DNA of 64,000 bases from an uncultured Muribaculaceae bacterium (GCA_964521685.1 CAZFTS010000004.1:6516-70515); one strand, 5' to 3'; counted from the stretch's first letter, positions 25,492-63,965 are shown. Numbers and translations are program-made. The notes: a model not told the origin generated them from the letters alone.

Positions 25492-25923
25492 ATGGGAAAG
25501 GGTGATATTATTAATCATGAGGGAGTTGTGAAAAAAATTGAAGATGGATTCATAACAGTCGGGATTTTAAACAAATCGGCCTGTTCTGCCTGCCACGCCA
25601 AGGGTGTATGCACCCTGGGTGATGAAAAAATAAAGGAGGTTGAGATCGAATACTCCGGATTTGATATCTATGAAACAGGGGAGCTGGTCAATGTGGTAAT
25701 GAAAAAGAGTATGGGATTTAAGGCTCTTTGGATATCTTATCTTACACCCCTTATAATTCTTTTGGTTTTATTAGTATCTTTGTCAGCCTTTAATGTCCCG
25801 GAATTAATTACAGGGTTAACAATAATCGCAGCTATATCTCTCTATTATTTTATTATTTGGATGTTAAGAGATAAACTAAAGAGAGAATTTGTTTTTACTA
25901 TTGAAAAACTTCAAATACAATGA
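25492..25923 (+). CDS. rseC: RseC/MucC family protein
   Basis: H.GVV, SACSACHAKGVC, two TM helices; precedes rnfB. Confidence 0.85.
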   Translation: MGKGDIINHEGVVKKIEDGFITVGILNKSACSACHAKGVCTLGDEKIKEVEIEYSGFDIYETGELVNVVMKKSMGFKALWISYLTPLIILLVLLVSLSAFNVPELITGLTIIAAISLYYFIIWMLRDKLKREFVFTIEKLQIQ

Positions 25924-26780: not shown

Positions 26781-26791
26781 AAACATTATAT

Positions 26792-28129: not shown

Positions 28130-28139
28130 CAGAAAACTT

Positions 28140-29141: not shown

Positions 29142-29730
29142 AGAGTCTTCACTTAAAAATATGGTTATAACTCTATCTGCAATAACCTTAATTTCTTCGG
29201 CGTTGTTAGGTGGTGTATATGCTGTGACAAAAGGCCCGATTGATGCTGCACTTACTGCTAAAACAAACAGTGCAATTGCAAGTGTGGCGCCTAAGTTTGA
29301 TAATGATCCTTCATCTGAAGTTCAGACAGTAGAGTATGCGGGGAAATCCTATAAAGCCTATCCTGCTAAAAGCGGGGGTGAGATTGCCGGTTACGCTATA
29401 GAGAGCTACTCATCGGGATTTGGTGGAAGAATCTCGTTAATGGTAGGTTTTAATATAAACGGAACTATAAACTCAATTTCGGTGCTCGGACATACCGAAA
29501 CTCCGGGTCTGGGAGATAAGATTGAACCTAAAAAGAGCGATTTCGGGGTTCAGTTCCAGGGTAAAAATCCTGAGGAGTTCAGAATGATTGTAAAAAAAGA
29601 TGGCGGAGATGTAGATGCAATAACTGCATCAACAATTACATCCAGAGCCTATTGTGAAGCTGTGAACACAGCCTGGGAGGTCTTTAAATTGTGTGCCGGA
29701 AAGCAAAATAAGGAGGTGAATAATGAGTAA
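29134..29730 (+). CDS. rnfG: Rnf complex subunit G
   Basis: HTETPGLG and VDAITASTITS. Confidence 0.95.
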   Translation: MAKESSLKNMVITLSAITLISSALLGGVYAVTKGPIDAALTAKTNSAIASVAPKFDNDPSSEVQTVEYAGKSYKAYPAKSGGEIAGYAIESYSSGFGGRISLMVGFNINGTINSISVLGHTETPGLGDKIEPKKSDFGVQFQGKNPEEFRMIVKKDGGDVDAITASTITSRAYCEAVNTAWEVFKLCAGKQNKEVNNE

Positions 29731-30310
29731 GCTAAAACTAATAACCAAGGGTATTTTTAAAGAGAACCCGATATTTGTACTGATGCTTGGAATGTGTCCT
29801 ACACTAGGTACTACAACATCAGCAATAAATGGTATGGGAATGGGTCTGGCAACCACATTTGTTCTTATCATGTCCAATATGGCAATTTCATCAATCTCCG
29901 GATTCATACCGAATAAAGTCAGAATTCCTTCTTACATTGTTGTAATAGCTGCTTTTGTTACAATACTTCAGCTTCTGATGCAGGCCTACACCCCGGGTTT
30001 ATATGCGACACTAGGTCTTTTTATCCCCCTTATTGTAGTAAACTGCATTGTTTTAGGAAGGGCAGAGGCATTTGCCTCAAAAAACGGAGTTCTTGATTCT
30101 GCTCTTGACGGAATAGGAATCGGCATAGGTTTTACTATGGCTCTTACTGTCCTGGGTGCTGTTAGAGAGCTCCTTGGAAGCGCATCTGTTTTTGGCATTA
30201 AACTAATTAATGCCGATGGTATGCTGGTTTTTGTTCTTGCTCCGGGAGCATTTATAGCCTTAGGCTATCTGCTCGTTATTTTCAATAAATATAAATCTAA
30301 GATCTCTTAA
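29723..30310 (+). CDS. rnfE: Rnf complex subunit E
   Basis: LGMCPTL and [18 protein letters not shown]. Confidence 0.96.
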
Positions 30311-30321
30311 CAGAAATTACC

Positions 30322-30921
30322 ATGGAATATATTCTTATAATTATATCGGCAGTTTTTGTAAACAACATCCTGTTGTCTCAATTCCTGGGGGTTTGTCCTT
30401 TTCTGGGAGTTTCCAATAAAGTAAGTACAGCCGCAGGTATGTCGGGTGCTGTTACCTTTGTTATGGCAGTAGCAACTCTTGTGACATATATCCTTCAGTA
30501 CTATGTGCTGGTTCCGCTGGGCATTGAGTTTATGCAAACTGTAACTTTCATTGTGGTTATCGCCTCTCTTGTTCAGATGGTTGAGATTATCATGAAAAAG
30601 CTGAGCCCGTCGCTGTATCAGGCACTTGGTATCTTTTTACCATTGATCACAACCAACTGTGCGGTTCTTGGAGTTGCAATCCTCGTTGTTTCGAAGGAGT
30701 TTACATTCGGAGGAGATCCGCATATGTTAAATATGGCACAATCTGTTGTTTTCGCCACTGCAAATGCACTGGGATTCGGGCTTGCAATGATACTTTTTGC
30801 AGGTATCCGTGAACAACTTGAGCTTAACAATGTTCCTAAAGCATTAAAGGGTGCTCCTATAGCACTTATTACGGCTGGTATTCTTGCTCTTGCCTTTATG
30901 GGATTTGCAGGACTTGTTTAA
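30322..30921 (+). CDS. rnfA: Rnf complex subunit A
   Basis: [11 protein letters not shown] and [12 protein letters not shown]. Confidence 0.96.
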
Positions 30922-49863: not shown

Positions 49864-51027
49864 TTAATCTTTATTTAAATTAATTTTTTGTTTTCTGTAA
49901 ATACCCGGGGTAATTCCGGTCTCTTTTCTGAATACTCTCATGAAAGAGCTTAATGATGCAAAACCCGATTGTTCTGCAATATAGTCCAAAACATAACAAT
50001 TCTCATCAAGAAGCAGCTTTTTTGAATACTCAATGCGGTACCTGTTAACAAGATCGGAGAAATTTGTTTTGAATTCACTGTTCACAATTGACGATATATA
50101 TGACCTGTTAGTTTTTAATTTATCGCATATGTCTGTAATCCTTAGGTTGTTATTGCGGAATATCTGCTCTTGCTCAAGCAGAAATATAAGTTCGCCAGAT
50201 AATTTACCCCGTATTTCATCGCCTGCGTACCTGTTAGAGTTTACATTATCCTTAAGCAGATCCCTTTCATAATTGACAATCGAGTAGCGTTGCCTGAATC
50301 CCAGAAATCCAATGGAGTAGAGCACGATACTGAAGAGCAGGGAAGGAATCATAAGCAACATCGATTCCTTTATAAAGAAAGCTTTTCCCAGGGTATTTAC
50401 AACAAGGGAAAAGAGTGCCGCACTAACCATAGCAACCATAATGTCCCTTGCCCATGCTAATGTTTTCTCTTCGGTAGATGAGTAGAACTCCGCTATTTTC
50501 TTTTCATAAGCAGATATCAGCTTCCAGCTTTGAAAAACCGAAGGTATTATCTGAATTGTAAAAACCACCCTGCTCATCTTATAAAGAAATATCTGCATTT
50601 TACCTATTGAAGAGAAGGTGAAACTAATGTTCTCTTTGTACTCCATCCTGAGGATGAAAGCCTCCAGCTCTTCCGGACTCATAATAACAAAAGAGAGTGC
50701 AGATGTTATGCCAAAAAAGAGTGCAGGAGTAAATATCAGCAGATCTTTCAGGGATGCTCCTCCCTCTTTGGCAACCGCCTTTATATAGATGTAAAACATC
50801 GGGAAAACAGAGAGGGATGTTAAAGTATAGAGGGGATCCAGAAATGCATATAGCCAGTAGTTTTTTGAAAAAAATATGGCATGTGAAGCATATAGTATTG
50901 TTGCGAGAAACATAAATAGAGCAAGAATAGACCTTGGCTTGTCTGAAGAGCGGGAATCTAACATGAGAGCGACGGCCCAGAAAAGGGTTACAAACATCGG
51001 GAGTGTGAATACAATCTGCTCTAACAT
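49864..51027 (-). CDS. Membrane-bound AraC-family regulator
   Basis: Multiple TM helices followed by NRSYISSIVN..NFSDLVNRYRIE and SGFASLSSFMRVFRK.TGITP. Confidence 0.9.
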   Translation of the reverse strand: MLEQIVFTLPMFVTLFWAVALMLDSRSSDKPRSILALFMFLATILYASHAIFFSKNYWLYAFLDPLYTLTSLSVFPMFYIYIKAVAKEGGASLKDLLIFTPALFFGITSALSFVIMSPEELEAFILRMEYKENISFTFSSIGKMQIFLYKMSRVVFTIQIIPSVFQSWKLISAYEKKIAEFYSSTEEKTLAWARDIMVAMVSAALFSLVVNTLGKAFFIKESMLLMIPSLLFSIVLYSIGFLGFRQRYSIVNYERDLLKDNVNSNRYAGDEIRGKLSGELIFLLEQEQIFRNNNLRITDICDKLKTNRSYISSIVNSEFKTNFSDLVNRYRIEYSKKLLLDENCYVLDYIAEQSGFASLSSFMRVFRKETGITPGIYRKQKINLNKD

Positions 51028-51057
51028 CTCTAAAAATTTTATTCACAAATTTAAGCA

Positions 51058-51179
51058 AAACATTTATCTCTGAGATTTTTTGACAAACGCCACAAATACA
51101 GTAACTTAATTTCAAGCTCGGTTCTGTTTAAGTGTTTAGATATCAATGTTTTGTCAAAAAATCTCAGAGATATATGTTT
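51058..51179. repeat. 122-bp element bounded by 30-bp inverted repeats (29/30 identical)
   Basis: AAACATTTATCTCTGAGATTTTTTGACAAA (51058-51087) versus the reverse complement of 51150-51179; 62-nt spacer. Confidence 0.9.
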
Positions 51180-51269
51180 CACCCGCCTTTAATTATCTCA
51201 TGTAAAGATTGGAAAGTCAATCCATTTCAATTACACTGCAAAAAGTTCAACTATGTAACTTAAAATTGC

Positions 51270-51277
51270 TATATTTG
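51270..51277 (+). promoter_or_regulatory. -7 box upstream of hydrogenase operon 1
   Basis: TATATTTG about 145 nt before the ATG, followed by the inverted repeat TGCAATT-N7-AATTGCA (51280-51300). Confidence 0.55.
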
Positions 51278-51420
51278 ATTGCAATTATTTTAAAATTGCA
51301 ACTTACACCTGTGAGAATGTAATTAAAAGTGTGAAAAGGTTAAGTGTGGCTTTACAAGTTCCTTGATTCCCAGAGATTTCAGTTGAACTAGATACAAACC
51401 AAAAAACTTAAAGGAAGCCT

Positions 51421-51957
51421 ATGAACACAAAAGACGAGAACTATGTCGATAGATCTTCTATCGACGAGATTATCTCCAGGCACAAAGGTAAACCGGGTGA
51501 GTTGCTTACCGTAATGGAGGAGATCCAGGAGGCGAGTGAATTCAAATATCTGGATACCGAGAGTCTGGATTATCTCTCTGCCAAAACAAAAGTGCCGCTT
51601 TCACAAATTTACAGCGTTGCCACTTTCTACTCATTTTTTAACTTAAAACCTCAGGGGAAACACACAGTGATTGTGTGCAGGGGAACTGCCTGTCACACTA
51701 AGGGATCCAAAGTGCTGTTGGATGACCTCTCTGCCCTTCCGGGATGTAAAGATGCGCTGGAGGCAGGAGAGACCAGTTTCACTACCGATGACAGACTCAT
51801 TACCGTAAAAACAGTTGCATGCTTTGGCCAATGTGCCCTGGCTCCAGTTGTTGCAGTAGACGGAGTTATCTATAGCAATGTAACATCGGAACAGATTAAG
51901 AAAATTTTACAAAACTTACAGGAGGATAATAGAGATGAGAATATCAGACTTTGCTAA
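51421..51957 (+). CDS. hydC: [FeFe]-hydrogenase 1 gamma subunit (NuoE/HydC-like, 2Fe-2S)
   Basis: VATFYSFF, CRGTAC and CFGQCALAP. Confidence 0.9.
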   Translation: MNTKDENYVDRSSIDEIISRHKGKPGELLTVMEEIQEASEFKYLDTESLDYLSAKTKVPLSQIYSVATFYSFFNLKPQGKHTVIVCRGTACHTKGSKVLLDDLSALPGCKDALEAGETSFTTDDRLITVKTVACFGQCALAPVVAVDGVIYSNVTSEQIKKILQNLQEDNRDENIRLC

Positions 51958-54900
51958 GCTAACGGAGTTAAAGGAGAGAGCGTCAAAGAAAATCCTTCCT
52001 GATAAACCTTATGTTGCTATAGGAATGGGCACCTGCGGAATCGGACGTGGTGCCGAGGTGCTGTTTGACAGTTTCGAGAGGATAATTAAAGAGAGAAATC
52101 TTGATATAATTCTCAAAAAAACAGGATGTTTCGGCTTTTGTGCCGAGGAGCCGCTTATAAACATCTACATACCCGGCAAGCCCCTTATAATAATGCACAG
52201 AGTCTCTGAAAATGACGTTGTCCCAATCGTAATCGGAATAGAAAAGGGGATAATGCCTTACAGAAATATAATGTGCAGAATTGAGGAGTGGGACTTTATC
52301 ACAGGTAAATTTAAATTCGGAGAGGGCTTGACCGAGTATCCGCTCTGGAACGAGGTTCCTTTCTTTAAATGGCAAAAGAAGATAGTTTTAAGAAATTGTG
52401 GCCTTATTGTTCCGGATGATATTGAGGAGTATATTGCAGTCGGAGGTTTCTTCCCTCTTTACAAAGCCCTCCATGAAATGAATCCGGCCTCTGTAATTGA
52501 AGAGGTTAAAGGTTCAAAACTAAGGGGTCGCGGTGGTGCTGGTTTTCCTACAGGAGTTAAATGGGAGCTTATGGCTAAAGTTGAGGCCGATCAGAAGTAC
52601 ATTATTTGCAATGCCGACGAGGGTGACCCGGGAGCTTTTATGAACAGAAACGAAATCGAGAGTGATCCGTTTATGTTAATCGAAGGAATGACAATTGGTG
52701 CTTTTGCAATGGGAGCTTCAAAGGGCGTTGTCTATATCAGAGCAGAATATCCGCTTGCAGTTCAAAGACTTAAAGGCGCTATAAAACAAGCAAAAGAGCA
52801 TGGTCTGCTTGGTGATAATATACTTAATTCGGGATTTAATTTTAATATTGATATTGTTGAAGGTGCCGGAGCATTTGTTTGCGGCGAGGAGACTGCGTTG
52901 ATACACAGTATTGAGGGTCGGTCAGGCCGTCCGACTCCACGTCCACCTTATCCGGCACAAAAGGGTCTGTATGGGAAACCTACTAACATCAACAACGTTG
53001 AGACATGGTGCAATGTTCCAGTAATTATCTCCAAAGGTGGCGAATGGTTGACCGGAACAGGTACAGAAAAAAGCCCGGGAACAAAAGTATTTTCACTGGT
53101 AGGAAAGGTAAGAAACACAGGTCTGGTTGAACTCCCGCTGGGATCAACACTTGAGACGATAGTGTTTAAAATCGGAGAGGGCACCGGTTCACACAAGAGG
53201 GTTAAAGCTGTTCAGACAGGAGGACCATCTGGAGGTTGTATTCCGGTTGAGTATCTGAATACTCCAGTTGATTATGAGTCTCTGAATTCGCTTGGGACCA
53301 TTATGGGTTCGGGAGGTATGGTTGTCATGGATGAAGATAACTGTATGGTAGACGTAGCCCGCTACTTTACCGAGTTTTCTAATGGTGAGTCCTGCGGTAA
53401 ATGTACACCATGCCGGGAAGGTCTTGCCCAGACTCTCTCTATCCTTAACAGGGTTACTGAAGGTAATGCAAATGCCGAGGATATTGATAAACTAATTAAA
53501 CTGGGACAAGTTATTAAAAGCACTGCTCTGTGTGGTCTTGGACAGACAGCTCCGAATCCGGTTCTGACAACTTTGAGATACTTCAGGGATGAGTACGATC
53601 ACCATATGATTGAGAAGAAGTGTGAACCGGGAATCTGCCATTCACTCTTTACTGCATTGTGTATCAACAGCTGCCCTATGCATATGAATATCCCGAGATA
53701 TCTGCAGCTGCTCAAGGAAGATAAGATTGAAGATGCATTTGAATCGACACTCAGAGATAATCCGCTTCCATCAACTATCGGACGTATCTGTCACTTTCAC
53801 TGTCAGATGAAGTGTCTGCGCGAAACTATAGATGCTCCTGTTTCACAGGGCGATATCCACAGATATATCTCCGATACGGTTTATAAAGAGGGTAAGGCTC
53901 AGAAGATTTATAACAGGCTCATTAAAGAGAAGCTTTCTCCGACTTATAAGAAGATTGCAATTATCGGAGGAGGACCTGCCGGTCTTACTTCTGCTTTCTA
54001 CCTGGTGAGGTTGGGTCATGACGTTACAATATTTGAATCTGAGAGTGCAGCCGGAGGTATTTTACGTTGGGGAATTCCAAAATACAGATTACCACTTGAA
54101 ACCCTGGATAGTGAAATTCAGTTTATTAAAGATTTGGGTGTCCATTTTGTGTTTAATACCACCGTTGGAAAAGATATTACTTTGGAAGAGCTTGAAAGAG
54201 ACTATCATAAGGTAATAATTGCTATAGGTGCGCATAAGGATGTAATGCTCAACATTGAGGGTAACCACCTTGAGGGGGTAATCTCCGGAATGGATTTCCT
54301 TAAAGATGTTTCAAAGGGTGTAAATCCAAATATCGGTAAAAATGTGGTGGTTATAGGTGCAGGTAACGTAGCAATCGATGCTGCCAGAACTGCTCACCGA
54401 TTCGGTGCCGAGGTAACTGTGGTATACAGAAGGTTAAAATCTGATATGCCTGCAAATAAGGACGAGATTAAAGAGGCCGAAATTGAGGGTGTTAACTATC
54501 TGTTCCTGAGTAACCCTAAAGAGATCCTGGCAGATGTTAACGATAGAGTGAGAGGTATTGAGCTTACAAAGATGAATTGTGGCGATATTGACCTTTCGAA
54601 CCGTCGTAAACCTGTACCTACCGGTGAATCGTTTATTATTGGTTGCGATACAGTTATCATGGCTGTCGGTGAAGAGGTTGAGGCTCCGTTTATTAAGGAG
54701 TTCGGCATAAAGGTTCACTCAGATGGTACCATCTACGCCGACCACTTTACATTTGAGACCAACCATCCTAAGGTTTATGCAATTGGTGATGCAGTAACCG
54801 GTCCGGCAACTGCTGCCGAGGCTATGGGTATTGCTAAGAAGGCTGCCGAGATGATTGATTACAAGCTCATGAATAAGAGACGTTTCCATAAATTGTTCAG

Positions 54901-55099
54901 AGGATTTGATTATAGCGACGATGTTCCGCTCAAACCAGAGGGAGGCAACCGCCACTATTCAATCAAACGACCACTCGAAGAGAGAATTGGTAATTTCAAA
55001 GAGATTAATCTTGGTTATTCAAGAGAGCAGGCTTATGCCGAGGCTTCAAGGTGTCTGCGTTGCGATGTCAGGGTAACCGTTAACAATGAGGAGGAATAA
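51935..55099 (+). CDS. hydB: [FeFe]-hydrogenase 1 beta subunit: thioredoxin-like Fe-S domain + NuoF/HydB core + GltD/NfnB-like FAD/NADP(H) oxidoreductase fusion
   Basis: GRGGAGFPTG, NADEGDPGAFM, GGPSGG, ESCGKCTPCREG; then CINSCP, GRICHFHCQMKC, GGGPAG, GAGNVAID..YRR and EASRCLRC. Confidence 0.9.
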   Translation: MRISDFAKLTELKERASKKILPDKPYVAIGMGTCGIGRGAEVLFDSFERIIKERNLDIILKKTGCFGFCAEEPLINIYIPGKPLIIMHRVSENDVVPIVIGIEKGIMPYRNIMCRIEEWDFITGKFKFGEGLTEYPLWNEVPFFKWQKKIVLRNCGLIVPDDIEEYIAVGGFFPLYKALHEMNPASVIEEVKGSKLRGRGGAGFPTGVKWELMAKVEADQKYIICNADEGDPGAFMNRNEIESDPFMLIEGMTIGAFAMGASKGVVYIRAEYPLAVQRLKGAIKQAKEHGLLGDNILNSGFNFNIDIVEGAGAFVCGEETALIHSIEGRSGRPTPRPPYPAQKGLYGKPTNINNVETWCNVPVIISKGGEWLTGTGTEKSPGTKVFSLVGKVRNTGLVELPLGSTLETIVFKIGEGTGSHKRVKAVQTGGPSGGCIPVEYLNTPVDYESLNSLGTIMGSGGMVVMDEDNCMVDVARYFTEFSNGESCGKCTPCREGLAQTLSILNRVTEGNANAEDIDKLIKLGQVIKSTALCGLGQTAPNPVLTTLRYFRDEYDHHMIEKKCEPGICHSLFTALCINSCPMHMNIPRYLQLLKEDKIEDAFESTLRDNPLPSTIGRICHFHCQMKCLRETIDAPVSQGDIHRYISDTVYKEGKAQKIYNRLIKEKLSPTYKKIAIIGGGPAGLTSAFYLVRLGHDVTIFESESAAGGILRWGIPKYRLPLETLDSEIQFIKDLGVHFVFNTTVGKDITLEELERDYHKVIIAIGAHKDVMLNIEGNHLEGVISGMDFLKDVSKGVNPNIGKNVVVIGAGNVAIDAARTAHRFGAEVTVVYRRLKSDMPANKDEIKEAEIEGVNYLFLSNPKEILADVNDRVRGIELTKMNCGDIDLSNRRKPVPTGESFIIGCDTVIMAVGEEVEAPFIKEFGIKVHSDGTIYADHFTFETNHPKVYAIGDAVTGPATAAEAMGIAKKAAEMIDYKLMNKRRFHKLFRGFDYSDDVPLKPEGGNRHYSIKRPLEERIGNFKEINLGYSREQAYAEASRCLRCDVRVTVNNEEE

Positions 55100-55101
55100 T
55101 T

Positions 55102-56874
55102 ATGGAAAAAAAGAAAATAGGTGTAAAAATTGACGGAAGGGATTACAACGTGGGTTCGGGTAAGACCATCCTTGAGGCCTGTAAAGAGGTGGGGATTAAA
55201 ATTCCCTCACTCTGTTATCTGAAAGATGTTTCGCATAACGCCTCCTGCGCTATTTGCGTGGTTGATGTAAAAGGTGCCAAATCTATGGTACGTTCATGCG
55301 TTACCTCTGTAGGAGAGGGGATGGAGATTACGACCCACTCTCCGGCAATAAATCAGGCCAGAAAACTAAATCTGGAACTTATACTTGCCAACCACCCGAA
55401 AGAGTGTCTAATCTGCGAGAGAAACGGCAATTGTGAACTACAGACTCTGTGTTCCGACCTAGGTATGACAGAGACAGCCTTCCCTCGTACCAAACCGAAC
55501 GAGGCTATGGATGAGACATCACTCTCTTTGGTAAGAAATCCGGACAAATGTATACTTTGCGGTCGTTGTATTGCGGTTTGTGCCGATGTTCAGACTGTTT
55601 ACGCAATCGATTTTGCCGGAAGGGGTTTGAGAAGCAAGGTATCTACCTACCAGCACAGAGGACTTGGAAATGTTGCATGTACAAACTGCGGCCAGTGTGC
55701 ACTGGTTTGTCCGACAGCTGCAATTGTCGAGAAGGATGATACTGCTGCCGTATTTGCCGATATCTACAATAAGGATAAGGTAGTTGTTGTTCAGACTGCT
55801 CCTGCAATCAGAGTTGGTATCGGTGAGGCTATGGGTATGGCAGAGGGGGCTCTGGTTACCGGGAAGATGGTTGCCTCCCTGAGAAAGCTTGGTTTTGATA
55901 AAGTGTTTGACACTCAGTTTACAGCCGACCTCACAATTATGGAGGAGGGACACGAACTCATAAGCAGAATTAAAAATGGCGGAACCCTGCCTATGGTTAC
56001 CTCATGCTCGCCGGGGTGGATCAAGTTCATCGAACACTTCTTCCCTAAATCGCTTAAACATCTCTCTACCTGCAAATCGCCGCAGCAGATGTTCGGTGCG
56101 GTTGCCAAGACATACTATGCCGAGAAGCTGAACATCGATCCGCGCAAACTGGTAGTTGTCTCGATAATGCCTTGTACTGCAAAGAAATTTGAGTGCAAGC
56201 GTCCAGAGATGAACTCTGCATTCCATTACTGGAAGGATAAACTCAATCTGACAGAGAAGGAGAACTTCTATGATGTAGATTATGTTCTTACCACCCGCGA
56301 ACTGGCCAAGATGTTCAAAAAGACCGGTGTTGACTTCAGCTCTCTTAAAGAGGAGGAGTTTGACCATCCGCTTGGAATCTCAACCGGGGCCGGAGTTATC
56401 TTCGGAGCAACCGGTGGTGTTATGGAGGCTGCTGTGAGAACCGCATACGAAGTGCTTACCGGTAGACCGCTGGAGAAGATAGATCTGAACATTGTCAGAG
56501 GATTTGAAGGCATTAAGGAGGCCGAACTTGACATAGACGGTACAAAAATCAAGGTAGCCGTAGCTCACACCCTGAAAAATGCAAGAGCGCTGTTCGATCA
56601 GATAGAAGAGGGCAAATCTCCGTATGCATTTATTGAGGTGATGACCTGTCCGGGCGGATGTCTGGGAGGTGGTGGTCAGGCAATTCCAACTACCTGGGAG
56701 ATCAGACAGAAGAGGGCAGATTCAATCTATAAAGAGGATACCCTTCATGCAATTCGTAAATCTCATGAAAATCCGGCGATTGTAGCTATCTACAAAGAGT
56801 TCCTGAAAGAGCCTCTGGGACACCACTCACATGAGCTGCTTCACACAGAGTATGTAGAGAGAGGGATCTATTAA
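55102..56874 (+). CDS. hydA: [FeFe]-hydrogenase 1 catalytic subunit (group A, 2Fe-2S plus three 4Fe-4S plus H-cluster)
   Basis: P1 TSCSPGW, P2 MPCTAKKFE, P3 EVMTCPGGCLGGGGQ; HxxxCxxCxxxxxC and two ferredoxin motifs. Confidence 0.96.
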   Translation: MEKKKIGVKIDGRDYNVGSGKTILEACKEVGIKIPSLCYLKDVSHNASCAICVVDVKGAKSMVRSCVTSVGEGMEITTHSPAINQARKLNLELILANHPKECLICERNGNCELQTLCSDLGMTETAFPRTKPNEAMDETSLSLVRNPDKCILCGRCIAVCADVQTVYAIDFAGRGLRSKVSTYQHRGLGNVACTNCGQCALVCPTAAIVEKDDTAAVFADIYNKDKVVVVQTAPAIRVGIGEAMGMAEGALVTGKMVASLRKLGFDKVFDTQFTADLTIMEEGHELISRIKNGGTLPMVTSCSPGWIKFIEHFFPKSLKHLSTCKSPQQMFGAVAKTYYAEKLNIDPRKLVVVSIMPCTAKKFECKRPEMNSAFHYWKDKLNLTEKENFYDVDYVLTTRELAKMFKKTGVDFSSLKEEEFDHPLGISTGAGVIFGATGGVMEAAVRTAYEVLTGRPLEKIDLNIVRGFEGIKEAELDIDGTKIKVAVAHTLKNARALFDQIEEGKSPYAFIEVMTCPGGCLGGGGQAIPTTWEIRQKRADSIYKEDTLHAIRKSHENPAIVAIYKEFLKEPLGHHSHELLHTEYVERGIY

Positions 56875-56897
56875 CAGAATCCTACTGTTTTAAAGTT

Positions 56898-56934
56898 GAC
56901 CGGTCCGGTATTTTTACCGACCGGTCTCTTTTTT
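56898..56934 (+). terminator. Terminator of hydrogenase operon 1
   Basis: GACCGGTcCGGTA-tttt-TACCGACCGGTC followed by tcTTTTTT. Confidence 0.8.
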
Positions 56935-57008
56935 ACTTGCATATCAGGGATTATCTTTCTAATTTTGAGTAAAATTCGGGCCCGTTGCAAACTCTAATAC
57001 CTCTAAAA

Positions 57009-57377
57009 ATGGAAATCGTAAGACTAACATCATGCAGTACATCATTTGATGCAAACATAATAAAATCGAAACTTGGAGATGCTGGAATTGAGTGCTTTAT
57101 CACAAATGAAAATTTCAGCACCATCTATCCCTTTCTTACAAGTGGTATTGATATAATGGTCAACGAGACCGATCTTGAGAGGGCTAAAGAGGTTATTTCT
57201 GATATTCCTGAAAAAGAGATTGTTTGCCCGAAATGTGGTTCGAAAAATGTAAAAATGGGTCTCGGTTCAAATCCAATAAAAAAGATTTTCCTGATTCTGA
57301 TTGCAGTACTATCTTTCAGCCCTGTCGGGAATGTGAAGGCGCAATACAGATGCAAAGATTGCAAAACCCTGTTTTAA
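57009..57377 (+). CDS. DUF2007-like putative signal-transduction protein with a zinc ribbon and a TM segment
   Basis: ANIIKSKLGDAGIECF..E, then CPKCGS, a hydrophobic segment and CKDC. TAATTTTG box at 56960-56967. Confidence 0.75.
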   Translation: MEIVRLTSCSTSFDANIIKSKLGDAGIECFITNENFSTIYPFLTSGIDIMVNETDLERAKEVISDIPEKEIVCPKCGSKNVKMGLGSNPIKKIFLILIAVLSFSPVGNVKAQYRCKDCKTLF

Positions 57378-57378
57378 T

Positions 57379-57411
57379 AAAAAAAGGTGGCTTATCGGAA
57401 GCCACCCTTTT
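57379..57411. terminator. Bidirectional terminator between the DUF2007-like gene and hydA2
   Basis: A-run, GGTGGCTT-atcgg-AAGCCACC, then cTTTT. Confidence 0.82.
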
Positions 57412-57435: not shown

Positions 57436-59226
57436 TTACCGACGTTTGCGCAGGGTGTATTTTGTGTGCAGGAGCTTGTGGGATACTTCGCCGCATGGTT
57501 TTACAAGGAAGTCCTGGTAAATCTTAACAACTTCGGGGTTGAGGTGTGACTTTCTGAGCGGCATGCCGGCGTCTTCGGCGTAGATGGCTGCTGCTCTTTT
57601 TGCACGTATCTCAGGGCTGGTTGGCAGTGGTTGACCGCCGCCACCGAGACATCCGCCCGGACATGCCATGAACTCGATGAAGTGGTAGTTGGCTTTTCCG
57701 TTTTTTACATCATCCATCAATGTTTTTGCATTGGCAAGCCCGTGTGCTATTGCACATTTTAGTTCGACACCTTCAAGGAAGCTCCACTCTTTGAGGGTGT
57801 TCTCGATTTTGATGGTTGCCTGTCTCATACCTTCAATACCGCGAACAGGGGTTATGTTGAGGTTTTCAAACGGTACTTCACGACCTGTAACCAGTTCATA
57901 AGCAGTTCTGAGTGCAGCCTCCATAACACCACCGGTTGCTCCGAAGATTACGCCGGCTCCGGTAGATTCTCCCATAAGCCTGTCATAGTGGGCATCTTCA
58001 AGCTTAAGGAAGTCAATTCCTGCCTGTTTAATCATAATTGCAAGCTCGCGGGTAGTAAGAACATAATCTACATCCCGGTATCCGCTATCGTGCATCTCAG
58101 GACGGTTTGCCTCAAATTTCTTGGCGGTACATGGCATTATAGAGACAGAGATTATGTTTGCAGGGTCCAGATTTCTGGCTTTTGCATAGTAGGTTTTAAC
58201 CAGCGCACCAAACATCTGCTGAGGCGATTTGCAAGTCGAGAGATTTCCGAGATACTCCGGATACATATGTTCGATGAACTTGATCCAGCCTGGTGAACAG
58301 GATGTAGCCATCGGAAGTTTTACAGTAGGATCTTTATCTACCAGAGCCTTTTTAAGTCTGGTCAAAAGCTCTGTCCCCTCTTCCATAATGGTGAGGTCGG
58401 CTGTAAAGTCTGTGTCCATAACGGCATCGAATCCAAGCCTTTTCAGTGCAGATACCATCTTGCCGGTAACTCTTTCACCCGGGTCGAAACCAAGCTCTTC
58501 TCCCAATCCGACACGCACTGCAGGAGCTGTCTGAACAACCACATGTTTGGTTTTATCGGCAATAGCACTCCACACCTCTTCAATGTAGTTCTTCTCTACA
58601 AGTGCTCCGGTAGGGCAGTGGTTAATACACTGTCCGCAGTTTGTACAGACAACATCGTTCATCGCCTTCTCAAAGAAGGTTGTGATTTTTGCATGCTCGC
58701 CTTTGTATGACATTGTGAGAGCATTTACCCCCTGAAGTTCGGCACAGGTGCGAACACACCTCTGGCAACGGATACATTTGCTGTCATCCTTAATAATGGA
58801 TGGAGAGAACATATCAATTGTGTAGTTGTGGTATGGAACAAGATTTATAAAATCCTGGTTCATTATCTTATACTCAGATGCCAGATTCTGAAGCTCGCAT
58901 TTTCCGTTTTTGTAACAACTTGTACAATCGGCATTGTGTTCGGAAAGGAGCAATTCAATTATATGTTTCCTTGAATTCCGAACCTTTAAAGAGTTAGTAA
59001 GAACCTCCATACCCTCTTCACAAGGGGTAGCGCAGGCCGGTGAAAGTCTCTTTTGACCTACCAGTTCAACAACGCAAACCCTGCAGTTTCCCGATACACA
59101 AAGATCTTTGTGGTAACAGAGAGTGGGTACGATTACTCCTGCCTGACGGGCTGCCTCAAGAATAGAGGCACCTTTAGCAACCTCTACGGTCGCTCCGTTT
59201 ATAGTTATTTTCAGATTTTTTCCCAT
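57436..59226 (-). CDS. hydA: [FeFe]-hydrogenase 2 catalytic subunit (group A)
   Basis: TSCSPGW, MPCTAKKFE and EFMACPGGCLGGGGQP; full F-domain Cys motifs. Confidence 0.97.
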   Translation of the reverse strand: MGKNLKITINGATVEVAKGASILEAARQAGVIVPTLCYHKDLCVSGNCRVCVVELVGQKRLSPACATPCEEGMEVLTNSLKVRNSRKHIIELLLSEHNADCTSCYKNGKCELQNLASEYKIMNQDFINLVPYHNYTIDMFSPSIIKDDSKCIRCQRCVRTCAELQGVNALTMSYKGEHAKITTFFEKAMNDVVCTNCGQCINHCPTGALVEKNYIEEVWSAIADKTKHVVVQTAPAVRVGLGEELGFDPGERVTGKMVSALKRLGFDAVMDTDFTADLTIMEEGTELLTRLKKALVDKDPTVKLPMATSCSPGWIKFIEHMYPEYLGNLSTCKSPQQMFGALVKTYYAKARNLDPANIISVSIMPCTAKKFEANRPEMHDSGYRDVDYVLTTRELAIMIKQAGIDFLKLEDAHYDRLMGESTGAGVIFGATGGVMEAALRTAYELVTGREVPFENLNITPVRGIEGMRQATIKIENTLKEWSFLEGVELKCAIAHGLANAKTLMDDVKNGKANYHFIEFMACPGGCLGGGGQPLPTSPEIRAKRAAAIYAEDAGMPLRKSHLNPEVVKIYQDFLVKPCGEVSHKLLHTKYTLRKRR

Positions 59227-59244
59227 AAAAATAATTTTTGCAGA

Positions 59245-60429
59245 TTAGTAAATCATCTCCTCTCTGAAGTTTTCAACAATTGATGAAAACGAGTTACCTA
59301 CCGATTGGCCCAGACCACATTTGGCAGTAAACTGCATAGTCTCGGCAAGTTTAAGCATTTTGTCCAGATACTGTGCATTCTTCTCTCCTCTCTTAACGGC
59401 CTTAATCCCTCTGAGAAGCTGCTGGCAACCAACCCTGCATGGGGTGCATTGGCCGCAGGACTCCTCTGCAAAGAAATTGAGATAGTTATCGAGAACATTG
59501 TACATAGATCTGGAACTGTTGAACAACATCATAGAGCCCCCGGTAGGAAGTGAAATTCCCACCAGTTTACCCTGGAATCCTATGTTTGTCTCTGCAAACC
59601 GTTTTCTTGGAACAAGGAATCCGGAAGCACCACCAACCTGTACAGCTTTGGTATCATCATCGCCGAACTCCTCAACGAAATCGGCAAGACTCATACCTAA
59701 CTCAAGCTCATAAATACCAGGTTTCGGAGTATCTCCCGACACCGAAAACAGTTTTGTTCCTCTGGAGTACTGAACTCCAAGATCGTAAAATCTTTTGGAA
59801 CCATATTTGAATATTGTATAGGTGTGCGCAAGAGTCTCTACGTTGTTGATAACGGTTGGCCTGCCCATATATCCCGAAACTGATGGATAAGGAGGTTTGT
59901 TTCTTGGCTCTCCACGTTTACCCTCCATCGATTCGAAAAGTGCAGTCTCTTCACCGCAGATATAGGCACCGCTTCCCATGAAAATTTTAATGGTGAAGTC
60001 GAACTTAATCTCTTTGCAATAGTATTCAAATTCTTTAATTGCTTTTAAAAGCTCGGGCTTCAGGAAGGTATACTCACCTCTGAGGTAAATGTATCCCTCT
60101 TTCGCTCCGATAACATACCCGCATATTGCAATAGCCGTCAATACTTTAAAAGGCACCTTGGATAAAATTTCCCTATCTTTGAAGGTTCCAGGTTCTCCTT
60201 CGTCGGCATTGCAAATAACATATTTAACACTACTCTTCTCCTCTGCCGAAACCTTCCACTTTAACCCTGTCGGAAATCCGGCTCCCCCTCTTCCTTTTAG
60301 TTCGGAGCTGATCAACTCGTTTATCAGCTCTTGTTGCGGACGGCTGATACTTTTGCTCAGCACCTCTTCCCAATCATTCTCATTATTGAAAATGAAATCG
60401 GCCCTCTTAAGTTGATAACTAGTTGACAT
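59245..60429 (-). CDS. hydB: [FeFe]-hydrogenase 2 beta subunit, minimal NuoF-like (FMN/NADH, one 4Fe-4S)
   Basis: 394 aa; GRGGAGFPTG, NADEGEPGTFKD, PPYP, GGASG, ESCGQCTPCRVG; ends shortly after CGLG. Confidence 0.92.
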   Translation of the reverse strand: MSTSYQLKRADFIFNNENDWEEVLSKSISRPQQELINELISSELKGRGGAGFPTGLKWKVSAEEKSSVKYVICNADEGEPGTFKDREILSKVPFKVLTAIAICGYVIGAKEGYIYLRGEYTFLKPELLKAIKEFEYYCKEIKFDFTIKIFMGSGAYICGEETALFESMEGKRGEPRNKPPYPSVSGYMGRPTVINNVETLAHTYTIFKYGSKRFYDLGVQYSRGTKLFSVSGDTPKPGIYELELGMSLADFVEEFGDDDTKAVQVGGASGFLVPRKRFAETNIGFQGKLVGISLPTGGSMMLFNSSRSMYNVLDNYLNFFAEESCGQCTPCRVGCQQLLRGIKAVKRGEKNAQYLDKMLKLAETMQFTAKCGLGQSVGNSFSSIVENFREEMIY

Positions 60430-60910
60430 TGTTTACATCCTCATCTTTTCGATTCATGTACATAGTAAGAATTTCACGAACCTTCTCAGGTGTAAGGTCG
60501 GTGTAGGCCTCGTTGTTTATGAGCATTGCAGGAGCTTTATGGCAAAGTCCCAAACAGTTGGTCTGTAGTAAAGAGAATAACCCATCCTGGGTTGTCTCCC
60601 CGATTTTAATCTTTAACATATCTTCTATTGCAAGCAGAATCTGCTTTTCTCCCTTCATGGAGCAGGTGATGGTTTTGCACACCCGAATGATGTTTTTACC
60701 CATCTTTTTGTAATCCAGAAAAGAGTAGAAGGTTGCGGTTCCATAAACTTCAGTCGCCGGAAGGTCCAGCTCCCTTGCAATTTCGATCATTGAATATTCG
60801 GAAAGATATCTCTCCTGTTCAACGACCCCCTGCAAAATCGGAAGCAGATTATGCCTCTCACGACCGTGCTTGTCGGCAAGCTCTTTAATGAGCTCAATAA
60901 TTGGTTTCAT
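60419..60910 (-). CDS. hydC: [FeFe]-hydrogenase 2 gamma subunit (NuoE/HydC-like)
   Basis: TATFYSF, CKTITC and CLGLCHKAP. ATG at 60910 preferred. Confidence 0.9.
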   Translation of the reverse strand: MKPIIELIKELADKHGRERHNLLPILQGVVEQERYLSEYSMIEIARELDLPATEVYGTATFYSFLDYKKMGKNIIRVCKTITCSMKGEKQILLAIEDMLKIKIGETTQDGLFSLLQTNCLGLCHKAPAMLINNEAYTDLTPEKVREILTMYMNRKDEDVNNVN

Positions 60911-61105
60911 CCAAAAAATATTTTGGTGGATAGTAATTTTGAGAAACCCAATTAAGGGTCTTTTGAAATCAACAAACCCCACATTGGAAGTTTGCAGAAG
61001 AAGGTCTTCAAAGTTAAGTTTTAATAAACGCAGCTCCTCCTTTGGGAGCAGACTTTAATTCCAACACAAAATGTGCAGTTCAAAATTTACAGGTGTAAAT
61101 ATAAG

Positions 61106-61137
61106 AAAAAAAAAGATACCTGACTTACAGAGCAGGT
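61106..61137 (-). terminator. Weak terminator after the histidine kinase
   Basis: On the minus strand ACCTG...CAGGT is followed by atcTTTTTTTTT. Confidence 0.4.
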
Positions 61138-63965
61138 CAACGTGAGTTGCGTGGAAGAGTGAATGAAAAACTACTTCCCTTTCCTTTAATACTTTCTGCA
61201 TGGATTTCGCACCCATGTTTTGATATGAACTCTTTGCATAGTATTAATCCCAAACCTGTTCCGGCTTCATTCTCGGTACCGCGCGTAGAGTAGAAGCTAT
61301 CCAGCCGGAAAAGATTGTCAATCTCCCTTTGTGACATTCCGCTGCCGTTATCGGAGACAGTTATAAGAGTGTGTTCGTCTTCGTTCATGGCCATTATCTT
61401 TACTTCTCCTCCTCTTGGAGTGAATTTAAGCGCATTTGAAACCAGATTTCGAAGGACTGAACTAACCATGGCCTTATCGGCAAAGCAGATTATGCTCTTC
61501 GGAACATGACTGACTATCTGGATAGATTTTTGATATGCATTATAGCGTGAAAGCGCAACAACTTCATCTACAATCTGTGAAAGTCTCATAAATTCCGGAT
61601 TGAACTCCATCCTTCCAGTCTGGGATCTTGACCACTCCAGCAGGTTTGTAAGCAGATTCATTGCTTTTACGGAGGAGTCCTTCATAATTGAAGTATACTC
61701 TTCGAGGGTATCGTACTCTTTTTTGCGTATCTGTTCGCTTAAAAGCTCTCCAATACCAATAATGCTGTTGAACGGACTTTTAAGGTCGTGTGCAATTATT
61801 GAGAAGAATTTGTCTTTTGTCGCATTAAGTTCGGCAAGTCTTGCTTCGCTCTCACGGAGCGCATCTTCGGCCTCTTTACGAGAAGTGATGTCTGTTATAA
61901 ATCCCTCCAAATGTGTGAGTTCTCCGTGCTTATCGAAAATTCCCCGACCCTGCTCCCATACCCATTTTACCTTACCGTCTGCCGTAATAATCTTGTACTC
62001 TTCCTGAAAAAAGGTGCCGGGGATAAGTGAGCTTTGCCATTTATTCCAAATGGCCTCCCTGAAATCGGGATGTATTATATCATTGTATGAGAGTTTATTA
62101 TTCATCGTAAGCTCTTCAGGTCTGTATCCGGTCACTTCGAGGCACTTCTCACTCAGGTAAAACATTGTCCAGTTAAGATCGAGTGCACATTTATATACAA
62201 ACCCAGGAAGATTATCTATCAAAGATGCTTTCTCTCTCTCGCTCTCAGTTAATCTCTCTTCAGTCTGACGTTTTTTGGTAATATCTCTCCAGGTTGCAAT
62301 AAAACCGTCACCAAATTTTGAAGCCTTTATCTCAAAAGCTCTTTTAAGTCGCCGACCTGCATAGTTGTCTTCATAAACGACAGATTCTTTCTCAACAACA
62401 TTTCCCGTCTCTACCAACTTAACATATTCGTCAAAAAGTCCCGTTGGTTTGTGTGCAGGGAGCAATTCACATAAACCTTTTCCAATTTGTTCCCCGGCAC
62501 TCATATTATTTAATTCGCACCCCTTGGGATTAATATAGTCAATTCTGAAATCAACAATCCTGTTTTTGTCATCCCTGATTGAGGAGTACATACCGAATGC
62601 ATCCAGAAGATTATCTATTGAGCTTTTGAATTTTCTTTCAAAGGCAATTAGTGCCTCAGAGATCTTTTTATACTCGCTTATGTCCTGGAATGCTCCGTGT
62701 ACTTTTACAATCTTACCGGTCTCATTTCTGACAGCTTCGGCATTAGTTCTTACCCATTTTCTCTTACCGGCAGATGTTATTATCTCCATCTCGAGGTCGT
62801 AAGGAGTTCCGTTCACGGAACATTCGCGATAAGCTTTTGCAATTTCTGACCTCCACTCAGGCGCATAAAAATTAATACCTTGCTCAACTGTAGGAGAGAA
62901 GCCCGGTTGAACTTCATGTATTTCGGCAACTACATCGGACCATGTAACAATATTCTCCTCAATATTGACTGTCCATCCGCCAAATTTAGCTGTTTCTCCA
63001 GCAATTCTTAAAAGGGTGTAGTTGTTTTTTAACTCCTCTTCCGCTACTCTTCTTCTTGTTATATCTTTGGAAAAAACTGCAACACTTTCTACTTTTCCTT
63101 TGAGAGAGGTAATGGGGTGGATAGAGTATTCATTCCAGAATCCACCTCTGGAATCCTCTCCATAAACAGGCTTTCCTGTTTTTATTACCTCAGATACACT
63201 TTTAAAACGGAGTGCACCTACCTCTTTAGGAAGCAGTTTAAAGACATTTTTCCCGATAAGATAATCCCGGGTGGTATTCAACCTTTTGGCATGTGCTTCG
63301 TTACAATCTATAACCACCCCGTTCTTGTCCAGAAGAATAATAATATCGTCGGTTGACTCCATAATGGCTCTTACGTTTGCTTCGGAGTTTCTGAACCTCT
63401 CTTCGTTTCTTTCGGCCTCCAATCTCTTAAGGGTGACTGATGCTTGTCTTACAAATGTTTCAATAATCTCACGGTGAGAAAGATCATTCCCTTTCCTGAA
63501 AATTAAAACCGCATTTGCATACATACGATTTTCAATCATAAATGCAACTCCGTAGATTGCACTAAGATTGACTAGCTTTTCCAGGGAACGGGATATTGTT
63601 TTCGGAATGGTCCGGAAAGAAAGTTCGTGGATTCCATTATCAAATTTATGTATATATCCGCTTTTTAATTCAAGAATAGAGGAGTCGACTTTGTAAGTTT
63701 TTCCTATTGGATTGTAACCAAGTATGGAGATGATTCTATCGATTAAGCCGGGAGGAGAGATAAAAACCTCTGTTCGACTAGTCTCCTGTTTGTCATCTAA
63801 AGAGTTGACAATAATAATGGCCTCGGGATTTAATTCTTTAAGGGAATCTCCAATAAACCGATAAATAGAATCTCCTATTTCGGAAGAGGCGAATTTTATC
63901 GCTGTTCCTGATAGAAAAGCCAGAGCGCTCCGGGTGTTATCCTGATTCTGATTGGCCGGCTTCAT
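61137..63965 (-). CDS. Cytoplasmic multi-PAS sensor histidine kinase
   Basis: Several PAS/PAC repeats ending in DIT/DIS; H-box AHDLKSPF, N-box NLVSNALKF, DNGSG and GTGLGL; no TM segments. Confidence 0.93.
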   Translation of the reverse strand: MKPANQNQDNTRSALAFLSGTAIKFASSEIGDSIYRFIGDSLKELNPEAIIIVNSLDDKQETSRTEVFISPPGLIDRIISILGYNPIGKTYKVDSSILELKSGYIHKFDNGIHELSFRTIPKTISRSLEKLVNLSAIYGVAFMIENRMYANAVLIFRKGNDLSHREIIETFVRQASVTLKRLEAERNEERFRNSEANVRAIMESTDDIIILLDKNGVVIDCNEAHAKRLNTTRDYLIGKNVFKLLPKEVGALRFKSVSEVIKTGKPVYGEDSRGGFWNEYSIHPITSLKGKVESVAVFSKDITRRRVAEEELKNNYTLLRIAGETAKFGGWTVNIEENIVTWSDVVAEIHEVQPGFSPTVEQGINFYAPEWRSEIAKAYRECSVNGTPYDLEMEIITSAGKRKWVRTNAEAVRNETGKIVKVHGAFQDISEYKKISEALIAFERKFKSSIDNLLDAFGMYSSIRDDKNRIVDFRIDYINPKGCELNNMSAGEQIGKGLCELLPAHKPTGLFDEYVKLVETGNVVEKESVVYEDNYAGRRLKRAFEIKASKFGDGFIATWRDITKKRQTEERLTESEREKASLIDNLPGFVYKCALDLNWTMFYLSEKCLEVTGYRPEELTMNNKLSYNDIIHPDFREAIWNKWQSSLIPGTFFQEEYKIITADGKVKWVWEQGRGIFDKHGELTHLEGFITDITSRKEAEDALRESEARLAELNATKDKFFSIIAHDLKSPFNSIIGIGELLSEQIRKKEYDTLEEYTSIMKDSSVKAMNLLTNLLEWSRSQTGRMEFNPEFMRLSQIVDEVVALSRYNAYQKSIQIVSHVPKSIICFADKAMVSSVLRNLVSNALKFTPRGGEVKIMAMNEDEHTLITVSDNGSGMSQREIDNLFRLDSFYSTRGTENEAGTGLGLILCKEFISKHGCEIHAESIKGKGSSFSFTLPRNSR

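Follow-up and report, generated by a model that had tools for sequence, protein, structure and literature searches.

An [FeFe]-hydrogenase operon in which HydB is fused to a GltD-type FAD/NADP(H) module

The 64,000-nucleotide (nt) stretch from an uncultured Muribaculaceae bacterium analyzed here (GCA_964521685.1 CAZFTS010000004.1:6516-70515; referred to as the window) encodes a three-subunit [FeFe]-hydrogenase whose beta subunit, HydB, ends in a GltD-type FAD/NADP(H) module where a ferredoxin-like domain (B3/B4) is usually found. The operon, hydC-hydB::gltD-hydA, is real, conserved and intact, and its architecture has already been described in silico; to that description we add that the module is of the permuted StnC/NfnA type, that it has a His ligand and that FMN-less colinear relatives exist. 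Judged by its genes, the enzyme may couple H2 to both nicotinamide nucleotide pools without ferredoxin (2 H2 + NAD+ + NADP+ <=> NADH + NADPH + 2 H+), a reading that we rate just under an even chance.

The hydC-hydB::gltD-hydA operon

Three consecutive open reading frames (ORFs) of 178, 1054 and 590 amino acids (aa) lie on the + strand, with neighbors overlapping or two bases apart. Residue numbers are those of the 1054-aa hydB::gltD product, except for the HydC cysteines, which are numbered in the 178-aa HydC.

51421..51957, +, hydC, NuoE-like, 178 aa (PF01257, E 3.6e-39).
51935..55099, +, hydB::gltD fusion, 1054 aa, single ORF (ORF call, Pfam, structure-chain match, homologs, junction contig).
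51998..52294, +, N-terminal thioredoxin-like domain of HydB (B5; C34, C65, C69, E72), predicted to hold zinc or [2Fe-2S] (alignment with 9n5u_B, 7t2r_B and 9bov_B N termini; residues invariant).
52505..53233, +, FMN/NAD(H) domain and SLBB loop: GRGGAGFP, D228, AFM, N237, F314, E319, R336, Y339, GGPSG (PF01512, alignment).
53336..53638, +, four-helix bundle with the B1 [4Fe-4S] site (C487, C490, C493, C533) and the B2 zinc site (C470, H557, C563, C568) (PF10589).
53636..53890, +, DPD_II-type cluster domain with a distal [4Fe-4S] (C576, C627, C1040, C1043) and a FAD-proximal [4Fe-4S] (C580, C619, C623, and His642 at nt 53858), both predicted (PF14691, alignment to 9bov_A, 8oh5_C, 9n5u_A and 5jca_L).
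53951..54829, +, FAD/NADP(H) two-Rossmann module (GGGPAG, R718, GAGNVA, YRR, GDAVTGP) (PF07992, motifs).
55040..55066, +, C-terminal EAxRCLRCD motif, which holds ligands one and two of the GltD fold in permuted position (alignment).
55102..56874, +, hydA, 590 aa, with [2Fe-2S], His-ligated [4Fe-4S], 2x[4Fe-4S] and H-cluster, C-terminal [2Fe-2S] domain absent (Pfam, NCBIfam, motifs).

In the 1054-aa protein, Pfam matched Complex1_51K (191-362), NADH_4Fe-4S (473-557), Fer4_20 (DPD_II; 568-652) and Pyr_redox_2 (673-965), and there was no Pfam match to a ferredoxin-type Fer4 dicluster. This order bears out the claim of the first-pass annotation that the ferredoxin domain is replaced and that the complex has a three-active-site architecture. 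The module, then put at about 480 aa beginning near 53650, measures 486 aa, with its first Cys at nt 53660, and the motifs named at that stage were each found in their place: GDPGAFM (230-236), PPYP (337-340), GGPSG (429-433), the site DNC470...H557-x5-C563-x4-C568, GGGPAG (678-683), GAGNVA (808-813) and YRR (831-833). The thioredoxin-like N-terminal domain likewise aligned to the N termini of the three solved chains given above. Since the first cluster Cys of the module follows the last zinc Cys by 8 residues, compared with 13 in the canonical HydB of the same genome, the module begins where B3/B4 begin.

A misassembled junction, which the first-pass annotation had named as a possible refutation, was not borne out. 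In an independent run, X7, a single 51.9-kb contig spans 51000-56097, junction included, with 0 differences from the window; this contig, the homologs and related loci with the same layout rule out misassembly or a chance fusion. No single listed piece covers 51000-57400 whole, and coverage in X11 is nearly nil at 53568-53781; neither was counted against the junction. Near-identical DNA with a habitat label came from wastewater and microbial fuel cell metagenomes. Contigs X15, X16 and X17 from RNA libraries of related strains (~90-95% identical) also span operon and junction, and such contigs cannot show transcription or its level. Scans for promoters (25 vs 17.9 ± 4.0) and terminators (12 vs 10.1 ± 3.4) did not rise above shuffled sequences.

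Conservation of the fusion

Counts out of 120 refer here and below to the best 120 of 8000 scored protein candidates. These homologs are 971-1074 aa long and 60-94% identical, and all have both halves. Among 72 genome loci with the GltD part, which are close kin and not independent (record titles name Bacteroidales, Paludibacter, Omnitrophota and Planctomycetes), 71 have the NuoF core and GltD in one frame; the exceptions noted are L040, frameshifted within the module, and L072, a stand-alone GltD-like gene. The domain search and HydA co-occurrence survey suggested by the first-pass annotation confirmed the architecture: hydA follows the fusion in 66/71 loci, and the remaining 5 end at a contig edge. 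Upstream, hydC with all ligands of its [2Fe-2S] cluster C1 was found in 64/71 (62 by script plus L055 and L067), and the other 7 begin at a contig edge. The module is present in 13/15 same-genus genomes, and a junction match was obtained in 9/400 Bacteroidota genomes (8 with hydC-hydB::gltD-hydA, 1 a different system), so that such genes are common in anaerobic Bacteroidales. The frameshift in L040 (5330-8582) breaks hydB::gltD in one Rikenellaceae metagenome-assembled genome and may reflect assembly error or decay.

HydA and class membership

The intact alpha-subunit H-cluster noted at first pass was recovered with all three motifs (TSCSPGW, MPCTAKKFE and EVMTCPGGCLGGGGQ; patterns P1-P3 taken from PMC11406978), and HydA passed NCBIfam NF040763 with 858 bits (cut-off, 765). 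Papers are cited here and below for the sections covered by our search. Together with the NuoF domain of the adjacent gene (PF01512, PF10589), the H-cluster makes hydC, hydB::gltD and hydA a group A3 [FeFe]-hydrogenase by the HydDB rules, in which A3 has NuoF in the downstream gene and A2 needs GltD without NuoF; here hydB lies upstream of hydA.

The domain features of sub-type I BfuABC were all found: B5, FMN, Nqo1/SLBB and B1/B2 in this order ahead of DPD_II, a C-terminal FAD/NAD(P) domain instead of B3/B4 and an M3a-type HydA. This sub-type was described by Zheng & Huang 2024 (mSystems, PMC11406978) from 45 gene clusters according to the supplement, with no biochemistry in the sections covered. 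The window enzyme also shares with it a HydA without C-terminal [2Fe-2S] and the presence of other hydrogenase sub-types in the same genome. It differs in origin: the sub-type was described for Hydrogenedentota with nearest homologs in other phyla, and Bacteroidota are not named in those sections, where the permutation goes unmentioned, as do the His/Lys ligand and a replacement of ferredoxin by NADP+. Schut et al. 2022 (PMC9304861) assign Bfu types by BfuA; of their features, the core B1-FMN-C1 with AFM, the Phe281 equivalent, GGPSG and the B2 zinc site is present, and IPR017896, the ferredoxin-type domain of B3/B4, is absent from BfuB, which had no Fer4-type match, so that the fusion falls outside their domain definition. 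Their family is also characterized by strict coupling of NAD(H) to ferredoxin. The SfrB or Moorella FdhB-type layout (B1 bundle plus GltD, no FMN domain) does not apply, as the window protein keeps its FMN domain.

The novelty implied at first pass was overstated. The architecture has been in print since 2024 (PMC11406978), an archaeal GltD-HydB has been modelled (PMC11216029) and the genes are widespread; what holds is that our literature search, from which subscription journals were largely missing, found no characterised enzyme and no biochemical study of one. That archaeal protein belongs to the group F hybrid [FeFe]/[NiFe] hydrogenase (Greening et al. 2024, PMC11216029), which likewise has a HydB with a glutamate synthase domain beside HydC and differs in being a five-subunit hybrid with ferredoxin as the proposed acceptor and a HydB module that, in the sections covered, is modelled but not assayed. 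Further sources drawn on are PMC7483475, PMC6288185, PMC6560083, PMC5037454 and PMC10327494.

The HydBC core and the missing ferredoxin domain

From HydC to the zinc site, the enzyme resembles the HydABC or FeFe-Bfu hydrogenases of T. maritima (7p5h), A. woodii (7q4v) and T. kivui (8a6t), with which it has HydC, HydA and the core of HydB in common (phmmer, E 1e-155 to 1e-179; Foldseek). The C1 ligands of HydC (C86, C91, C134, C138) are invariant in 32/32 aligned HydC C-terminal domains, and every B1 and B2 ligand residue is kept in 120/120 homologs; the B2 site of Bfu structures is a zinc held by 3C1H (PMC11829005). B5 has the same three Cys and Glu as Csac NfnB, in which they bind zinc (3C1E; PMC11829005). 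By alignment, the FMN/NAD residues map onto D195, A201-M203, F281, E286 and R303 of T. sibiricus NfnB, in whose structure the E319 equivalent is the NADH-selecting Glu (PMC12018979). F314, E319 and R336 are invariant (74/74 aligned), K209 is invariant too, and A234, M236 and GGPSG are conserved in 120/120. Of the features that Losey et al. 2020 (PMC7311640) associate with bifurcation, A/E at 232, M at 234 and GGPSG are thus present (A234, M236, GGPSG). Two NADH-dependent hydrogenases that do not bifurcate, S. wolfei Hyd1ABC and S. aciditrophicus HydAB (PMC7311640), also lack B3/B4 and have Tyr at the F367 position, but they carry T/S at 232, K/S/A at 234 and no GGPSG.

What sets the window enzyme apart from HydABC is the absence of the B3/B4 domain, the 486-aa GltD module and an Asn after AFM. 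Bfu-family enzymes found by the literature search use ferredoxin as the low-potential partner. Ferredoxin, which C1 cannot reduce directly, docks between HydC and the B3/B4 domain (PMC12018979); the usual ferredoxin site is gone because the B3/B4 domain is absent. NfnL reduces ferredoxin at its distal cluster, and the window enzyme might likewise still bifurcate to NAD and ferredoxin or flavodoxin, with ferredoxin docking at the distal cluster of the GltD module and NADP(H) extra or vestigial, as suggested for the archaeal hybrid enzyme. We consider this unlikely, since the domain that forms the ferredoxin site is missing, the distal cluster, being tied to the core, would point inward, the NADP motifs show no variation and a canonical HydB is encoded elsewhere in the genome.

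The module resembles StnC and NfnA

Comparison with solved structures splits the fusion protein in two: residues ~27-577 match HydB/NfnB/StnB chains and ~575-1046 match NfnA/StnC/NfnL chains, and no PDB chain spans both halves (Foldseek, best TMq 0.49). The module is circularly permuted; residues 13-48 at the N terminus of NfnL (5jca_L) align at its C terminus, whereas StnC and Csac NfnA are colinear with it. StnABC or Nfn-Bfu enzymes (S. ovata 8oh5, C. saccharolyticus 9bov, T. sibiricus 9n5u) gave the best sequence and fold matches and share the HydBC-type core and a permuted non-bifurcating GltD module. Those enzymes, however, carry the module on the mid-potential side, in their A subunit and with Lys as cluster ligand, and they use ferredoxin and lack an H-cluster; in the window enzyme the module belongs to the B subunit, the ligand is His and H2 is the third substrate.

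At the non-Cys ligand position of the FAD-proximal cluster, StnC/NfnA have Lys and NfnL has Glu; mutation of this residue strongly alters activity (PMC11829005, PMC12018979, PMC10482914). By homology, both [4Fe-4S] sites of the module can be assigned ligands, and at this position His642 is found in 120/120 homologs and 69/71 loci (2 unmatched). The permuted C-terminal CxxC ligands of StnC/NfnA are present, and the ligand of the proximal cluster is neither their Lys nor the Glu of NfnL. The NADP-type motifs GxGxxA and YRR are conserved among the best homologs; GxGxxA was proposed to be NADP-type in StnC. The module thus appears to be a non-bifurcating NADP(H) converter of the StnC type.

Zheng & Huang 2024 (PMC11406978) proposed instead that the FAD is a second bifurcation center. 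As in NfnL, it would split the electrons of NADPH between the hydrogenase and another acceptor, perhaps via a docking NfnS. Indeed, the NfnL of NfnSL (P. furiosus 5jca, T. maritima 4ylf) shares the FAD/NADP fold (root mean square deviation, 1.6 Å), the two [4Fe-4S] clusters and the Arg beside FAD, for which R718, the equivalent of NfnL R201, is present in 120/120. For bifurcation this Arg would have to hydrogen-bond to FAD N5, which its distance decides (PMC12018979, PMC10482914), and the non-bifurcating StnC has the same Arg (R239; PMC10482914). NfnL differs in that it is unpermuted, has a Glu ligand, requires NfnS, bifurcates at FAD and forms a separate clade. His642 in 120/120 argues against a second FAD bifurcation site, as do the permuted StnC-type topology and the Lys ligand of 16/31 wider fusions. 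A tree of 44 modules placed 17 His-type rows in a single clade (Shimodaira-Hasegawa-like approximate likelihood ratio test [SH-aLRT], 99) apart from 5 NfnL rows (100), and two more His rows fall outside; this was a quick maximum-likelihood search with SH-aLRT only (44/44 rows kept), whose largely unresolved backbone does not establish the order of events. Genomic context gives the proposal some support, since an nfnL gene lies immediately upstream of hydC in four loci labelled Omnitrophota, but these nfnL genes carry their own Glu ligand and no NfnS-like ORF was seen at the window locus. On balance, bifurcation at FAD is improbable. A five-subunit complex with NfnSL was considered and is unsupported, as nfnL is adjacent in only 4/72 loci, plus a partial GltD-like ORF in L062.

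Proposed electron flow

Electrons of Bfu enzymes enter B1 from the A subunit; FMN gives hydride to NAD+, and a mobile C1 carries low-potential electrons to the C-terminal clusters of B (PMC11829005, PMC10482914). With the module in place of these clusters, the H2 couple would stand between NAD as the high and NADP as the low couple. Given the gene content and residues observed, we infer cofactor occupancy, wiring, coupling and direction as follows. Electrons would pass from the H-cluster through the HydA clusters and B1 to FMN, which would hand hydride to NAD+. A gated C1 in HydC would pass single electrons to the distal cluster, the His-ligated proximal cluster, FAD and then NADP+, with FAD a plain two-electron/one-electron converter as in StnC and not a second bifurcation site. 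In this full form, which we hold more tentatively than the coupling as such, the HydBC flavobicluster would split the electrons of H2 between NAD+ and NADP+ in a strict 1:1 ratio, sending the low-potential pair via the His-ligated [4Fe-4S] cluster to the FAD of the same chain, and the enzyme would be a ferredoxin-free, soluble H2-driven or H2-venting transhydrogenase tuned to ~100 Pa H2, with a His642/Asn237 signature across Bacteroidota, Omnitrophota and Planctomycetota.

With E' values of -280 mV (NAD) and -370 mV (NADP) (PMC10482914), we computed an equilibrium H2 pressure of 98 Pa for the coupled reaction; with NAD as the sole nucleotide it would be 3 Pa, and with NADP 3.3 kPa. In this fermentative lineage of the Bacteroidales, the likely direction would be H2 production; oxidation of NADPH would pull the oxidation of NADH up to ~100 Pa H2, and reduced ferredoxin would be spared for Rnf. 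Above ~100 Pa, NADPH could alternatively be made from H2.

The likeness to StnC also allows the opposite polarity, 2 NADPH + NAD+ + H+ -> NADH + H2 + 2 NADP+, that is, a Stn-like transhydrogenase in which H2 replaces ferredoxin and protons serve as the low-potential sink. NADPH is the mid-potential donor in Stn (PMC10482914), and the reaction was computed to be favorable up to very high H2. In all solved Bfu enzymes covered by our search, however, it is the mid-potential side that the A subunit feeds via B1, and low-potential electrons go to the C-terminal domain (PMC11829005, PMC10482914); the attachment of the module here is opposite to what this polarity requires, and we regard it as the least probable of the alternatives.

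Evidence from FMN-less relatives and models

A more serious alternative is an uncoupled NADP(H)-linked hydrogenase that catalyzes H2 + NADP+ <=> NADPH alone, with the GltD module wired to B1 or the HydA clusters, or with FMN and C1 as a mere wire. NAD+ reduction at FMN would then be separate or minor, possibly with a one-way transhydrogenase leak from NADPH to NAD+. We rate this possibility at roughly one in three, and the coupled reading of the operon, which the first-pass annotation had also offered, is only slightly ahead of it.

Several observations weigh against coupling, and most of them favor this alternative. Three complete proteins of 650-655 aa (P0218, P0221, P0224) lack an FMN domain and consist of the B1 bundle and the module; P0221 aligns colinearly with residues 441-1043 of the fusion (37% identity). 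No NCBIfam profile matched these proteins above its cut-off. A B1 bundle plus GltD without FMN is presumably the layout of SfrB or Moorella FdhB, to which the three may be related. Erosion of the FMN/NAD loop was also seen in several full-length representatives. Residues 441-1046 were modelled with confidence from 50 sequences (predicted local distance difference test [pLDDT], 90.5; predicted template modeling score [pTM], 0.86), which suggests that bundle and module pack as a fixed unit, unlike the mobile B3/B4 domain; the full-length AlphaFold model (pLDDT 80.9, pTM 0.57, linker 566-582 below 50) gives no orientation of the halves. Taken together, the colinearity of FMN-less relatives with 441-1043, the FMN-eroded forms and the modelled bundle-module packing make it probable that electrons can pass between the module and B1 or the alpha subunit with neither FMN nor C1 involved. 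A precedent may be the NADP-dependent FdhB of Moorella, which is described as a 4Fe-4S domain plus NADP domain (PMC5736913).

Three further points concern the FMN site and the energetics. First, N237 stands in place of an Asp in 120/120 homologs and 68/68 covered loci; by motif spacing, it would replace Asp103 of Aquifex NuoF, which makes a water-mediated contact to nicotinamide. Second, the Phe that Losey et al. 2020 (PMC7311640) take as the bifurcating letter at T. maritima position 367, with Tyr the non-bifurcating one, is Y339 here (Tyr in 103/120, Phe in 17/120). Third, the NAD-NADP gap is ~90 mV, so that strict coupling gains only ~9 kJ/mol per branch at 100 Pa. Finally, hydF and hydG were not found in the 94%-complete genome. 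This is likely an assembly gap, because hydG is above cut-off in 9/15 same-genus genomes, including the single-contig G011, which also carries the fusion.

PPYP with Y339 was rejected as a mark of non-bifurcation, since the bifurcating T. sibiricus NfnB likewise has Tyr. The equivalent of N237 is Asn in 14/114 core-only representatives, some with a normal ferredoxin tail; it is therefore no mark of lost coupling. It was also rejected as an exclusive marker of the fusion, since those core-only proteins have it and K-type fusions have Asp. Moreover, an uncoupled enzyme fits poorly with the invariance of F314, E319, R336, K209 and the bifurcation-linked A234, M236 and GGPSG and with the retention of HydC and the thioredoxin domain throughout, and a three-way wire without a gate would drain the NADPH pool.

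How the single FMN of Bfu enzymes bifurcates is unsettled (PMC11829005, PMC12018979). If the coupled reading is true, the enzyme has a nucleotide at both exits, ~90 mV apart, and tests a conformational gate without ferredoxin in assays for which small molecules suffice. HydDB-style rules class such genes as NAD+ferredoxin A3, though the usual ferredoxin site is impossible, and metabolic models would change. A ferredoxin-free enzyme from H2 to NADPH would also be useful for cofactor regeneration.

Other NuoF-GltD fusions

Among the best 150 representatives at 50% identity, 31 hold the NuoF part and the module, with 16 Lys, 7 His, 5 Glu and 1 Gly at the ligand position and 2 unscorable. Five NuoF-GltD fusions (P0129, P0139, P0147, P0154, P0180) have altered or eroded FMN/NAD loops and an NfnL-like Glu ligand and are candidates for proteins in which FAD rather than FMN could bifurcate. 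P0146, P0151, P0206 and P0212 are fusions of 1030-1130 aa that combine a Lys ligand with eroded FMN loops; P0146 and P0151, the two whose sequences were inspected, have lost part of the B1 cysteines and carry additional Fe-S motifs at the C terminus. In genome G061 (L085, 1840-12499), an Asp/Lys-type NuoF-GltD fusion is flanked by a NuoE fusion of 498 aa and an Fe-S flavoprotein of >985 aa without H-cluster match; by this arrangement, the same beta subunit design appears to serve a non-hydrogenase partner.

Other redox systems of the genome

The genome (G000; 3.2 Mb) encodes three multimeric [FeFe]-hydrogenases, of which the other two are the following.

57436..60982, -, second hydrogenase cluster (hydC, 394-aa hydB with GEPGTFKD and GGASG, hydA), convergent with the fusion operon (Pfam, motifs, Losey criteria).
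L073 2705-10806 (G000:C13), canonical hydrogenase cluster with a 597-aa HydB, order hydD-hydB-hydA-hydC, predicted to use NADH and ferredoxin and to bifurcate.

The 394-aa HydB is of the S. wolfei/S. aciditrophicus type, and its hydrogenase is predicted to be NADH-only and non-bifurcating. Short HydB ORFs of this type number 25 among the 72 loci, upstream, downstream or inverted, the pairing being kept and the orientation not; a second H-cluster gene lies inside the fetched flank in 35/71 fusion loci, again in varying orientation. RnfC, zwf, an NfnL-like gene and hydE are also present in the genome. A third coupling would fit, because NADH-only and NADH-plus-ferredoxin hydrogenases, RnfC and zwf are already there.

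The NfnL-like gene (L075 113-1495, G000:C88) has the Glu ligand and lies at the start of a 4-kb contig. A search for NfnS gave a single weak PF10418 match in a 1093-aa frame of the 94%-complete genome; four relatives each have an additional 284-302-aa NAD_binding_1 frame, and the NfnS partner was probably lost at the contig edge. On the - strand of contig C10 (L074 1987-9387) lies an HdrA-like/MvhD-like cluster that encodes a 930-aa HdrA-like protein with an inserted permuted GltD module and a Lys ligand; behind it lie another HdrA-like gene and a gene for a membrane Fe-S protein. Upstream in L073 lie a kinase-like gene, a gene for an Fe-S hydrogenase-like regulator and likely DRTGG/PHP genes, and downstream an hcp-like gene.

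Genes around the operon

Window positions 25920-30921 (+), ~20 kb upstream on the same contig, hold six genes beginning with an RnfB-like gene and then rnfC, likely an rnf operon. A membrane-bound AraC regulator (49864-51027, -) is divergent from hydC and is a possible regulator. Between the two converging hydrogenase clusters lie a small gene with DUF2007 and a zinc ribbon (56985-57406) and a terminator-like hairpin (57386-57406). Immediately upstream of the second hydrogenase cluster, a multi-PAS histidine kinase (61137-63965, -) is another possible regulator.

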